Under the pieces are notes generated by a model. That model made no database searches and was not told the DNA's origin. It worked only from the letters and a program-made list of their open reading frames with translations. From the IMG/VR virus record IMGVR_UViG_2597489870_000004: DNA of 45,587 nucleotides; one strand, 5' to 3'. Positions within the stretch are counted from its first letter, which is position 1, and each line of letters starts with the position of its first letter. Origin of the DNA: a virus. Its lineage: Duplodnaviria > Heunggongvirae > Uroviricota > Caudoviricetes. Below, piece after piece: positions 38,254 through 40,664 of the stretch. A program made the position numbers and the translations under genes.

Positions 38254-38679
38254 TCAATGTACTGCCACAGCATTTCCTGCCGGGCCACCACGGTTCATCT
38301 GATTGAAACCGGCGATTGCCACTGCGACAAAATCATCAGCGTCTCTCACCAGTCGCTCCCGCGTCTCCACCAGCTCCCGAAAATAAGCTGAACTGTGGCT
38401 GCGCATTCTGGCCACCAGCAAAGGTGGCATTGCCTTTTCGATCGCTGGTAACAACGCCTGAATTTTTTCAACTGCATCAGGGGTGTCTTTCTCTACCCAG
38501 CGGAAAATTTTCTGGGTATTGCGAGCCAGGGCTTCCGGATGGCTGTCGTCATACAGTTCCGGGAACGTCATTCCCAGCTCGAAATACGCTTTGGTAATTT
38601 TCGCAGCCGGTACTTTTTCGCCGTCCGGATGCGCCCAGGCATTCATCGCCATGCGGATGTGTTCATGCTTGATTTTCAT
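38254..38679 (-). CDS. YdaT-like protein (CII-position early regulator candidate)
   Basis: 141 codons from ATG 38679 with AAGGAGGG Shine-Dalgarno; MKIKHEHIRMAMNAWAHPDGEKVPAAKITKAYFELG...; directly downstream of cro-like gene. Confidence 0.5.
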   Translation of the reverse strand: MKIKHEHIRMAMNAWAHPDGEKVPAAKITKAYFELGMTFPELYDDSHPEALARNTQKIFRWVEKDTPDAVEKIQALLPAIEKAMPPLLVARMRSHSSAYFRELVETRERLVRDADDFVAVAIAGFNQMNRGGPAGNAVAVH

Positions 38680-38905
38680 GAATCCCTCCTTGGTTAGAAG
38701 GCGGATTATGATCAGAACCGGGAATGACAACCGTCGGTATGTGTAACTCATATTTGAGCGCCCCGGCAGTGACTGCCTGAATTAGCAACGCCCATTTCCA
38801 CGGAACCTCTTCCCCCCACATGCTGACTGTGGTTTTTGACGTTCCTAGAGCTGCGGCTGTTTTAACAACTCCGCCAAAATAGCCTAATACTTCTGATTTT
38901 TTCAT
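38663..38905 (-). CDS. Cro-like HTH repressor (YdaS-like)
   Basis: 80 codons from ATG 38905; MKKSEVLGYFGGVVKTAAALGTSKTTVSMWGEEVPWKW... HTH; divergent from cI-like gene. Confidence 0.6.
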   Translation of the reverse strand: MKKSEVLGYFGGVVKTAAALGTSKTTVSMWGEEVPWKWALLIQAVTAGALKYELHIPTVVIPGSDHNPPSNQGGIHENQA

Positions 38906-38932
38906 GAGTCGCTCCATAAAACTGAACGTCAA

Positions 38933-38997
38933 AAGTTTAATAATCAAAACCAAAGAAAGTCAAGAAACAAAACCATCTGTGTTTTAAAATCAAAACA
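38933..38997. promoter_or_regulatory. Right operator/promoter region between cI-like and cro-like genes
   Basis: Palindrome TGTTTTaaaatcAAAACA at 38980-38997 (overlaps cI ATG) and degenerate copy AGTTTAataatcAAAACC at 38933-38950. Confidence 0.5.
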
Positions 38998-39635
38998 TGA
39001 GCAAGCAAACTATATCTGAACGCATAACCCAACGTATGCATGCGCTAAACCTGAAAGGCAAAGACCTTGTCAATGGCACTGGCGCATCAAAAGGCTCCGT
39101 AAGTCAATGGATGAACGGTGGAGGAGCGCCGTCCTCGCGTTACATAAGTTCACTGGCAAAAATATTGAAAGTAAACGAAAATTGGCTTCTTAATGGAGGA
39201 GAGTTAAATACAGGTGATTCGCTTGATCTATCTTTACCGCCGATAAAAACGGTTCCGCTACTATCACTTCAGCAGGCAGCAAGCTGGAGTGATTATATGA
39301 AAAATTCCTCAATAACCTCTTGTGTGCAGCTTGTCGGAGAAATCCCGGTCAATACCTTTGCAGTTGTTCTAGAGAGTGACAGTATGTCAACATCTGGTGG
39401 GGGAGTTTCCATCCCAAATGGTTCAACAGTTTTTGTTGATCCCGATCGAACCGTACAACCAGGAAATATTGTCCTTGCCTTACCCAAAGGGACCACAACA
39501 CCTGTCATTCGTAAACTGGAGATAGAAGGGCCGGATATTCTTTTAGTCCCCACGAATCCTCGCTACCCTTCAATTATGCTGGATGATCTATCTTGCATAT
39601 TGGGCGTATGCTTTAAAATTCAACAAGATATTTAA
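38997..39635 (+). CDS. CI-type prophage repressor (N-terminal HTH, C-terminal S24 LexA-like peptidase)
   Basis: 212 aa; HTH segment (SKGSVSQWMNGGGAPSSRYISSLAKIL) and C-terminal autoproteolysis-type domain. Confidence 0.8.
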   Translation: MSKQTISERITQRMHALNLKGKDLVNGTGASKGSVSQWMNGGGAPSSRYISSLAKILKVNENWLLNGGELNTGDSLDLSLPPIKTVPLLSLQQAASWSDYMKNSSITSCVQLVGEIPVNTFAVVLESDSMSTSGGGVSIPNGSTVFVDPDRTVQPGNIVLALPKGTTTPVIRKLEIEGPDILLVPTNPRYPSIMLDDLSCILGVCFKIQQDI

Positions 39636-39701
39636 CCAACCTCATCTATTTGATTAACTGTATGCCATCGTGGTGATGGCTTAACAGCTGCCTGCTTAAA
39701 A

Positions 39702-39748
39702 TGTTTTGATAAAAAAACATTGACCTAAAAAGTTCGTTTTTCTAAACT
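39702..39748 (+). promoter_or_regulatory. PL-like promoter with overlapping operator
   Basis: Operator TGTTTTgataaaAAAACA (39702-39719) abutting -35 TTGACC (39720-39725), 17-nt spacer, -10 TAAACT (39743-39748). Confidence 0.5.
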
Positions 39749-39927
39749 TCATTCATTCCCTCACCCCATCCTACAGAATGCAGGGCAATACTTCGAGTTA
39801 CCAGGCAGTGGTCAGGGGTTAAGTAGCCAGCCCGAGGCGTAAGAACATGACGGCAGGGTTCAACTTTAATAACTATGCAGCAGGTTTTTGTTCCGCTACC
39901 CCGGCGTTAAGGGGAAATGAGGTCAGC

Positions 39928-40080
39928 ATGGATACTATCGATCTTGGCAACAACGAATCTCTGGTGTACGGCGTGTTTCCAAACCAGGACGGCACGTTTA
40001 CCGCGATGGCGTATACCAGAAGCAAAACGTTTAAAACTGAAGCTGGCGCGCGTCGCTGGTTAACCAGAAACACTGACTGA
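39928..40080 (+). CDS. ydfA: DUF1391 small protein (YdfA-like)
   Basis: 50 codons from internal ATG with GAGG upstream; MDTIDLGNNESLVYGVFPNQDGTFTAMAYTRSKTFKTEAGARRWLTRNTD resembles remembered YdfA. Confidence 0.6.
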   Translation: MDTIDLGNNESLVYGVFPNQDGTFTAMAYTRSKTFKTEAGARRWLTRNTD

Positions 40081-40421
40081 TGAGGTTGACGATGGAATTT
40101 AAAGATTTACCAGTACCATTCCAGGAAATGGCATCGAATGTGGTTCGCTCTCAACTGGCGACTCTTGACCTGAGTACCGTAGAAAAAGAAACCATCGACA
40201 ATATATCCGGTAACGTACGCCGAGCCTTTATCGGGCTGTACGAAGAGAAGCAGCTCTCTGATAACCAGGATTTACATGAAAAATACTTTCTGGAATTAAT
40301 GGACATCATTGATAAGGGGTTTGGCTTGTTAATAAAAAAGAAAGGGATTCGAATAGAACCCCTTGAAAATTACCTTGCAACAAAAAGCATTAATTCTTTT
40401 GATTCAAAACAAGAGAATTAA
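40080..40421 (+). CDS. Hypothetical protein (YdfB/YdfC position); start may be ATG at 40092
   Basis: 113-codon ORF following ydfA-like gene in same operon. Confidence 0.5.
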   Translation: MRLTMEFKDLPVPFQEMASNVVRSQLATLDLSTVEKETIDNISGNVRRAFIGLYEEKQLSDNQDLHEKYFLELMDIIDKGFGLLIKKKGIRIEPLENYLATKSINSFDSKQEN

Positions 40422-40664
40422 TTACAGATTTAACATGCTCTTTCTCATGATTGAAGCTCTCATGATTGAAAGTGCCTGGTTGAAGCGAGTCGATATAATC
40501 AACAAGACTCTGTCGTACGACTTCATTTTTATCCATTACAGATGCAAGAAATGAAATTGCTAAAAGAGTTATATCACTACGCGCCGCAGCATGCTGCAAT
40601 GCTTTATCAAAATTATTAATCTGGCGTATCAGGGAGTTAATGATTTCATCATTTTCAGTCGACA
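40390..40664 (-). CDS. Hypothetical protein encoded antisense to the early-left operon
   Basis: 91 codons from ATG 40664 preceded by AGGAGGGTG at 5-nt spacing; contains tandem SFNHE duplication; 3' end overlaps the convergent plus-strand ORF. Confidence 0.45.

Follow-up and report, generated by a model that had tools for sequence, protein, structure and literature searches.

The window analysed here is a 45,587-nucleotide stretch of a Caudoviricetes virus (IMG/VR record IMGVR_UViG_2597489870_000004; all coordinates are positions in it), and this report concerns its immunity region, in which two divergent regulator genes are accompanied by 18-bp palindromes. The plus-strand gene (38997..39635) encodes a 212-aa CI-like repressor with a helix-turn-helix (HTH) N-terminal domain and an S24 peptidase-like C-terminal domain: Pfam scores HTH_3 at 20.8 bits, below the curated cutoff of 23 bits, and Peptidase_S24 at E 4.3e-13; residues 13-204 match the full-length lambda repressor 3bdn (E 7.5e-10), and the N-terminal domain also matches the 434 and P22 repressors. 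As read from the sequence, motifs DSM and RKL stand at the Ser and Lys positions. The minus-strand gene (38663..38905) encodes an 80-aa Cro-like protein of the P22_Cro/DicC family (PF14549, E 1.1e-15; phrog_409) and is preceded by the Shine-Dalgarno sequence GGAG (38915..38912). The two start codons are 91 bp apart, and on the minus strand cro is followed by a gene for a YdaT-family protein, in the position of cII, and then by replication genes.

An earlier note on this DNA, made from the sequence alone, had described two palindromes of the form TGTTTT-N6-AAAACA and proposed them as operators of the repressor. Both are where it placed them, at 38980-38997 (TGTTTTAAAATCAAAACA) and 39702-39719 (TGTTTTGATAAAAAAACA), and a search for further copies, which the note had suggested as a check, found no other exact match anywhere in the window. 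In dinucleotide-preserving shuffles the mean number of exact matches was 0.01, and none of 100 shuffles contained two. With the shorter core TGTTT-N8-AAACA and at most one mismatch, the whole window yields a single additional match, at 31052, which is unrelated. Nor did a repeat finder detect any repeated motif other than the palindromes that is common to the right operator (OR) region between the two genes and the left operator (OL) region beyond cI.

In the OR region, the repeat finder returned three sites whose starts are 23 bp apart each. O-a (AGTTTAATAATCAAAACC, 38934..38951) is OR1-like, matches 8 of 10 core positions, and covers the -10 hexamer and part of the spacer of a PR-like promoter; O-b (AAGTCAAGAAACAAAACC, 38957..38974), a weak or half site in the OR2-like position, covers the -35 hexamer of the same promoter; and O-c, the perfect palindrome TGTTTTAAAATCAAAACA at 38980..38997, is OR3-like and covers a PRM-like -10 together with the first base of cI. 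The degenerate neighbour that had been reported near the cI start is thus real, but there are two of them, O-a and O-b, rather than one. The PR-like promoter, found by a promoter scan (score 9/12), occupies 38934..38963 on the minus strand (TTGACT at 38963..38958, 18 nt, TAAACT at 38939..38934) and points at cro. Relative to its inferred start near 38927, the centres of O-a, O-b and O-c lie at about -15.5, -38.5 and -61.5.

The last A of O-c is the A of the cI start codon (ATG, 38997-38999), which bears out the claim that one palindrome overlaps this codon. A candidate PRM -10 (TAAAAT, 38985..38990, plus strand, read from the sequence) ends 6 nt before that A; its -35 counterpart is poor (AAGAAA), and the ATG lacks a Shine-Dalgarno sequence. 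The arrangement TAAAAT, 6 nt, ATG is conserved, as is the lack of a Shine-Dalgarno sequence, the cI start of phage Evi has a like geometry (GATAAT, 6 nt, ATG), and the same -10, 6 nt, ATG arrangement is found at lambda PRM, again at a cI start without a Shine-Dalgarno sequence. With this layout, which fits the leaderless cI transcript suggested in the earlier note, the cI messenger RNA would probably start at the A of its own ATG. Compared with L003, a diverged lineage of this immunity type, the first 12 cI codons contain four synonymous changes and one conservative change, and the N-terminal 100 codons show 26 synonymous against 18 non-synonymous codon differences, indicating purifying selection. 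An Rfam search of the immunity region itself gave no match.

The second perfect palindrome, OL2 (39702..39719), is followed directly by TTGACC (39720-25), 17 nt and TAAACT (39743-48), so that it abuts the -35 hexamer of a PL-like promoter (39720..39748, plus strand; promoter scan 9/12) exactly as first described. A decayed equivalent of OL1 (AGTTCGTTTTTCTAAACT, 39731..39748) ends in the -10 hexamer of this promoter. It occupies the place of OL1 in distant relatives (TGTTTGAAnnATTAAACT), agrees at 14 of 18 positions with the OL1 of L156 (AGTTTTGTTATCTAAACT), and its left arm is polymorphic in the E. coli population. The proposal that operators sit at both promoters is therefore supported at the sequence level, with the amendment that OR consists of three sites and that a further site, now decayed, lies over the -10 of PL. 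Downstream lie a ydfA-like gene (DUF1391; 39928..40080, plus strand; PF07151, E 4.7e-27), which is the first gene of the PL operon and whose equivalent open reading frame (ORF) is annotated by RefSeq, and the gene for the small RNA DicF (41002..41053, plus strand; RF00039, 76.7 bits against a gathering threshold of 48, E 2.5e-16); in near-identical loci, ydfABC, dicB, ydfD and an exonuclease gene are found downstream of PL. Because ydfA and DicF lie below it, the PL-like promoter is on gene order the counterpart of Qin dicBp, heading a ydfA...DicF operon rather than an N operon.

The motif is confined to an exchangeable block. On both sides of it, phages Tritos, vB_EcoS-689R5 and Evi share 94-99% identity with the window, as far as 38684-38688 on the left and from 39762 onward on the right, and between these junctions they carry unrelated cro and cI genes with their own, different palindromes at the corresponding places. 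None of the three contains TGTTTT-N6-AAAACA at all, though their ydaT-like gene, which lies outside the exchanged segment, is 96-99% identical. The distance from the PL -10 to the right junction is 13 nt here and 11-13 nt in these heteroimmune phages. Since homology stops and resumes at these points, the exchangeable unit comprises cro, OR, cI and PL (an immunity-specific mosaic module at 38685..39761), with every copy of the motif inside it.

Within E. coli, a 901-bp core of this module occurs in 1042 of 5426 complete genomes, including O157:H7 strains, at 80-100% identity; the copy in O157:H7 is 97.7% identical. The earlier note had held that absence of the palindromes from phages with the same repressor would speak against it; they are kept in every locus that carries this repressor. 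Across 84 loci, which comprise 10 OR and 41 OL haplotypes, not one change falls in the arms of the palindromes, whereas the flanks are highly polymorphic. Taking in the diverged lineages as well, O-c is present in all 88 loci, with a single change of an innermost base (38992, in L086), and OL2, invariant in its arms in the 84 loci, is altered in L086 at the innermost base of the left arm (39707 T>A). O-b is unchanged throughout; O-a has one change, 38951 C>A, in L003 and the near-identical L087 and L089, which shifts it toward the consensus. The PR hexamers are invariant in the 88 loci except for one locus with 38934 A>G, and those of PL are conserved around a highly polymorphic spacer (39726-37). 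When positions were called variable if changed in L003 or L086 (L087 and L089, near-identical to L003, were not scored separately), these lineages, 82-85% identical to the window, varied at 3 of 72 operator positions but at 51 of the 133 non-coding positions that the module has outside the operators (Fisher p = 1.4e-8). The three are 38951, 38992 and 39707, and the two innermost-arm changes suggest an effective core of TGTTT-N8-AAACA. The candidate consensus for this immunity type thus survives as a palindrome, with a conserved core narrower than the TGTTTT-N6-AAAACA first proposed. The 212-aa cI reading frame is intact in 86 of the 88 loci; L001 and L002 carry a 102-bp in-frame deletion in the linker that leaves a 178-aa protein, and both also vary in the A-tract of OL2.

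Among phage records, the repressor has near-identical relatives only, followed by a gap down to about 30% identity (mEp460, mEp390, phage 21), which marks it as a distinct immunity type. Those phage records in which the module occurs were produced by a bioinformatic survey of prophages, and literature searches for them returned no functional data. Word-indexed protein searches recovered only relatives at least 72% identical, and a search for the window's CI in one representative genome per species found none. An exhaustive HMMER search with the CI N-terminal domain, by contrast, recovered from other Enterobacterales repressors 50-63% identical there that keep the helix ASKG(T/S)VSQW(V/M)NGG. 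The loci of one of these repressors, P0031, and of a second such repressor provide about 36 distinct immunity regions (IMG/VR contigs and genomes of Edwardsiella, Scandinavium and Kosakonia; the P0031-type relatives include IMG/VR contigs L116-L159), and their CI proteins are about 40-45% identical to that of the window.

These relatives repeat the arrangement site by site, and the core TGTTT-N8-AAACA is common to them and the window. Their OR aligns with that of the window without gaps from the cI ATG back for about 65 nt: the A of the cI ATG, which again lacks a Shine-Dalgarno sequence, is also the last base of a palindrome TGTTTAA-N4-TTAAACA; AGTCAAGAAATTAAAC, which contains the PR -35, is kept at the place of O-b; and an O-a-like AGTTTAATnnTTCAAAC(A/T) ends 47 nt before the ATG (46 nt in the window). 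The PR hexamers are likewise kept in 21 distant relatives. Beyond cI, a terminator is followed by a palindrome at a distance of 64-74 nt from the stop codon, compared with 67 nt in the window, and OL2 and OL1 flank TTGACx-16-TAAACT, 64-108 nt after the cI stop; a promoter TTGACx-16/17-TAAACT was found in 21 of 21 relatives. There, the last 12 nt of the 16-17-nt PL spacer together with the -10 TAAACT form the second palindrome, OL1, and in L130 OL2 is identical to that locus's own O-c. The differences from the window are that the half-site is TGTTTAA rather than TGTTTTxx, that OL1 is intact, that OL2 stands 4-7 nt from the -35 instead of directly next to it (0 nt here), and that the terminator is clear. 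Their Cro is homologous to the window's Cro and has SK(S/T)TVS(L/M)W where CI has SKG(T/S)VSQW; in the window, Cro residues 23-30 (SKTTVSMW) similarly resemble CI residues 31-38 (SKGSVSQW). A motif that holds the same positions, and that over so wide a divergence stays tied to one pair of helix signatures, is the strongest sequence-level evidence for a CI/Cro operator short of a footprint.

Taken together, these comparisons make it very probable that CI and Cro use the palindromes as operators in a bistable switch of the lambda type whose specificity was previously uncharacterised. The 212-aa CI and the 80-aa Cro would each bind as dimers to 18-bp sites built on the core TGTTT-N8-AAACA. Expression of cro, of the ydaT-like gene and of the replication genes would cease when CI occupies O-a (and O-b), and cI would be turned off once Cro, or CI in excess, sits on O-c. 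At PL, CI at OL2 and at the decayed site over the -10 would keep the toxic early-left operon (ydfA...DicF and the exonuclease genes) silent, perhaps by interfering with the contacts of sigma region 4 and of the C-terminal domain of the RNA polymerase alpha subunit, with weak help from the OL1 remnant; this action at OL2 is the least secure part of the mechanism. What the sequences show is the sites, their placement relative to consensus promoters, their conservation and their linkage to this pair of regulators; binding itself, the order in which the sites fill, the leaderless start of cI and repression rather than activation at each site are inferred.

Several observations weigh against this reading. 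A BLASTP comparison of the CI N-terminal domain with Cro gave no alignment, so the likeness of their helices rests on visual inspection, and its VSxW part is common among HTH_3 proteins. O-b agrees with the consensus in its right arm only. The best palindromes lie on PRM and upstream of PL, not over the cores of the lytic promoters, unlike the hierarchy of affinities in lambda. Moreover, the only good site at PL is OL2, the one over the -10 being decayed and polymorphic, and OL2 is centred at about -44.5, upstream of the -35 and outside the classic position for occlusion, the predicted PL start being near 39755. The central A7 run of OL2 (39709-39715) is A6 in five loci and A8 in one, so that the spacing of the half-sites differs by 1 bp in 6 of 88 loci (L001, L002, L051, L083 and L089 among them); such loci may be copies in decay, or the difference may stem from sequencing errors in the homopolymer. 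Furthermore, all variants of the E. coli type keep the same recognition helix, so protein and site do not covary, and with no intermediate relatives that have altered helices the type offers no covariation test. Conservation of the arms could in part reflect promoter constraint, since the operators overlap promoter hexamers, and a literature search for the operator site sequences produced no match.

The position of the most symmetric sites, at PRM and the cI start and upstream of PL in the window and in the relatives alike, may reflect either a preference of Cro (lambda Cro prefers OR3) or strong autorepression by CI. There is also something to be said for the idea that only one regulator uses these sites (e.g., Cro at O-c and OL2), or that a host protein that binds AT-tracts (H-NS, Fis or IHF) occupies them while CI acts elsewhere: the perfect palindromes are off the cores of the lytic promoters, the region is very rich in AT, and in Qin DicA bound only one of three sites predicted from sequence (PMC3441716). 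We nevertheless regard this as unlikely, given that no other repeat is common to OR and OL, that it is the arms and not the AT-rich centres that are conserved, and that CI and Cro both keep their helix signature family-wide. The YdaT-like protein, an analogue of CII, is an even less likely ligand. Proteins of its family do bind 18-bp inverted repeats with 6-bp arms and N6, in Rac they also footprint three sites between repressor and cro (PMC11879457), and the minus strand reads TTGATT within both O-a and O-c; the YdaT-box consensus, however, is TTGATT-N6-AATCAA (PMC11879457), a proper copy of which (38669-86) covers the ydaT start just as the box does in Rac. In addition, Tritos, 689R5 and Evi share the ydaT-like gene yet lack TGTTTT-N6-AAAACA, so the palindromes travel with cro and cI and not with ydaT.

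For OL2 on its own, one might suppose that the palindrome serves mainly as an UP-like promoter element, or as part of the cI 3' end or a terminator, and that its likeness to OR is incidental. The A-tract that OL2 overlaps looks like a proximal UP element: GATAAAAAAACA, immediately before the -35, is similar to AAAAAARNR, the proximal UP subsite, and the arms of OL2 pair as a weak hairpin in RNA folding. That hairpin, however, is AU-only and lacks a U-tail, conservation of the T-rich left arm TGTTTT equals that of the A-tract, and the relatives carry their own operator sequence at this place, with centres that are not A-tracts and, in L130, with an OL2 equal to O-c. We therefore consider such a role quite improbable as the main one. 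That the palindromes are functionless, chance symmetries of AT-rich DNA is next to impossible: the intergenic regions are indeed AT-rich, and matches to TGTTTT-N6-AAAACA with at most two mismatches are only about 3-fold above expectation, but two exact copies far exceed the expected number, and the sites are kept in 82%-identical lineages and in the roughly 36 distant regions at fixed positions relative to both ends of cI and to the promoters. The comparative data have in effect already refuted this last possibility.

Comparison with known systems places the locus among lambdoid switches with a sequence specificity of its own. As in lambda, cI and cro are divergent, CI joins an HTH N-terminal domain to an S24-type C-terminal domain, and the immunity module is exchanged as a mosaic unit. 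The three partially symmetric sites of about 18 bp, spaced about 23 bp apart, sit at nearly the same distances from PR (the lambda OR sites are centred at about -17, -41 and -64), and a further site lies beyond cI. The operator sequence itself is unrelated, TGTTT-N8-AAACA here as against TATCACCGCCAGTGGTA in lambda; the PR and PRM starts would be about 70 bp apart rather than 82, which would place O-b at about -31.5 of PRM and not at the activating -42; and there is neither rexAB nor N/nut, PL driving the ydfA-DicF operon instead. The sequence-testable hallmarks of lambdoid immunity are found here (divergent genes, HTH and S24 domains, multiple operators, an OL copy, a mosaic module), with the exception of the Ala-Gly self-cleavage site: in the linker PLLSLQQAASWSD, the putative site reads QAAS where lambda has QAG, within QQAASW (39270-39290, residues about 92-98), so that the bond would be Ala-Ala and inducibility by the SOS response is uncertain. 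At this position L156, the closest relative outside the E. coli type, has QAVTW, and P0031 has VQAGRW. The DNA at the cleavage site is unusually conserved and contains a hairpin (ATCACTTCAGC/GCTGGAGTGAT, 39263-93).

The dicA-dicC-dicBp region of Qin resembles the locus in other respects. The Cro belongs to the DicC family PF14549 and is annotated as DicC in phage records; the promoter downstream of the repressor has the -35 TTGACC and drives ydfA...DicF; and operator-like palindromes are found upstream of that -35 and over the spacer and -10. Chromatin immunoprecipitation sequencing places DicC peaks on either side of dicA in Qin (PMC11430063), and DicA represses dicBp 22-fold (PMC10448788): with DicF below PL here, the same topology is thus present in an analogue that has been studied by experiment. 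The repressors differ in kind, the one here being of the 212-aa CI/LexA type with an S24 domain and DicA having 135 aa and no S24 domain. The operators differ as well, those of Qin following TTGTTAG...CTAACAA (its Oc site is TTGTTAGTCATAACTAACAA; PMC3441716), and the site over the PL -10 is decayed only here. Despite its DicC-family Cro and dicBF-type operon, the window's locus is not DicA-type. The comparison with the operators of known immunity groups, as proposed in the earlier note, accordingly shows a sequence unlike those of lambda and Qin.

With Rac and CP-933P, the locus shares the order of repressor, cro-like gene, YdaT-family CII analogue and replication genes, whereas the families of the repressor (RacR or PaaR2) and of Cro (YdaS), as well as the operators, all differ. 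It also shares a YdaT-box-like inverted repeat over the ydaT start (TTGATTTTCATGAATCCC, 38669..38686), which lies at the edge of the immunity module without being part of it and would belong to a different regulator; the footprinted YdaT-box of Rac, ATGATTCATGAAAATCAA, has an identical layout (PMC11879457). A promoter scan additionally found a candidate PRE-like reverse promoter inside cro (38862..38891, plus strand; TTAACA, 18 nt, AATACT), about 185 bp from the YdaT-box, and it may be activated by YdaT: in Rac, YdaT activates the PRE analogue PracR4, which lies some 190 bp away from the YdaT-box (PMC11879457). Such a promoter would yield a second, leadered cI transcript.

Other candidate sites were considered and rejected. 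The match at 40394-40411 (TTCTTTTGATTCAAAACA), which has two mismatches, shows the wrong spacing of half-sites and is within chance expectation; it falls where two convergent ORFs have their 3' ends, inside a strain-specific insert. This insert (40060-40680), between ydfA and the DicF region, is absent from Tritos, 689R5, Evi and Qin and contains two convergent ORFs, one of 109 aa (phrog_6937, unknown function) and one of 92 aa without a family match. At the 3' end of cI, a 28-bp stretch (39609-39636) is unchanged even in 82%-identical lineages; TGCTTTAAAATTCAACA within it is operator-like with a spacing shorter by 1 bp, and it was dismissed as an extra site, as was a conserved island inside cI (39259-83), the conserved runs of both being within the range of shuffled data (95th percentile, 30 bp). 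A scan of IMG/VR with the idealised palindrome TGTTTTGA-NN-TCAAAACA gave 22 scattered single matches on unrelated contigs, which we judged to be due to chance.

Between cI and OL, an RNA fold prediction gives a hairpin, GCCATC-gtggt-GATGGC (39664..39680, plus strand), in which all population polymorphisms fall in the loop; it has no U-tract, whereas the relatives have a clear rho-independent terminator there. The 5' untranslated region of the PL transcript showed no significant structure when folded (z = +1.4). A sub-threshold match to STnc100 lies 3' of DicF (41065-41205). The annotation of the repressor in public genomes also deviates from the gene described here: RefSeq/PGAP models begin at an internal ATG (39297) and report a 112-aa 'LexA family protein' (L004, L086-L090), while the HTH half (38997-39296) is left unannotated or flagged as a partial pseudogene, and the truncated model has a PHROG of its own (phrog_8558, 'unknown function'). 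The likely reason is that the true ATG lacks a Shine-Dalgarno sequence.

A bolder interpretation would see in these loci an Enterobacterales-wide CI/Cro family whose logic departs from that of lambda, with the most symmetric and presumably tightest operator on a leaderless cI start, a second one upstream of PL, and weaker sites over the lytic promoter cores. Given the decayed OL1, the shifted OL2 and the Ala-Ala site, the module in the window might then be non-SOS, strongly autorepressed, and domesticated for the control of a DicF/DicB-type operon. We offer this tentatively and think it rather doubtful. As a lambda-type CI/Cro system, the switch is biologically conventional and holds no surprise for the specialist; its practical value lies in its abundance, in its place upstream of DicF, and in the annotation error. 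The comparison provides concrete grounds for correcting a widespread RefSeq error in which the DNA-binding half of a repressor is missing. The module stands directly upstream of a ydfA...DicF operon (with dicB as well in many strains) that affects cell division and phage resistance, and an operator consensus with five mapped sites makes superinfection immunity groups, cross-regulation among co-resident prophages, and the control of DicF open to direct test.

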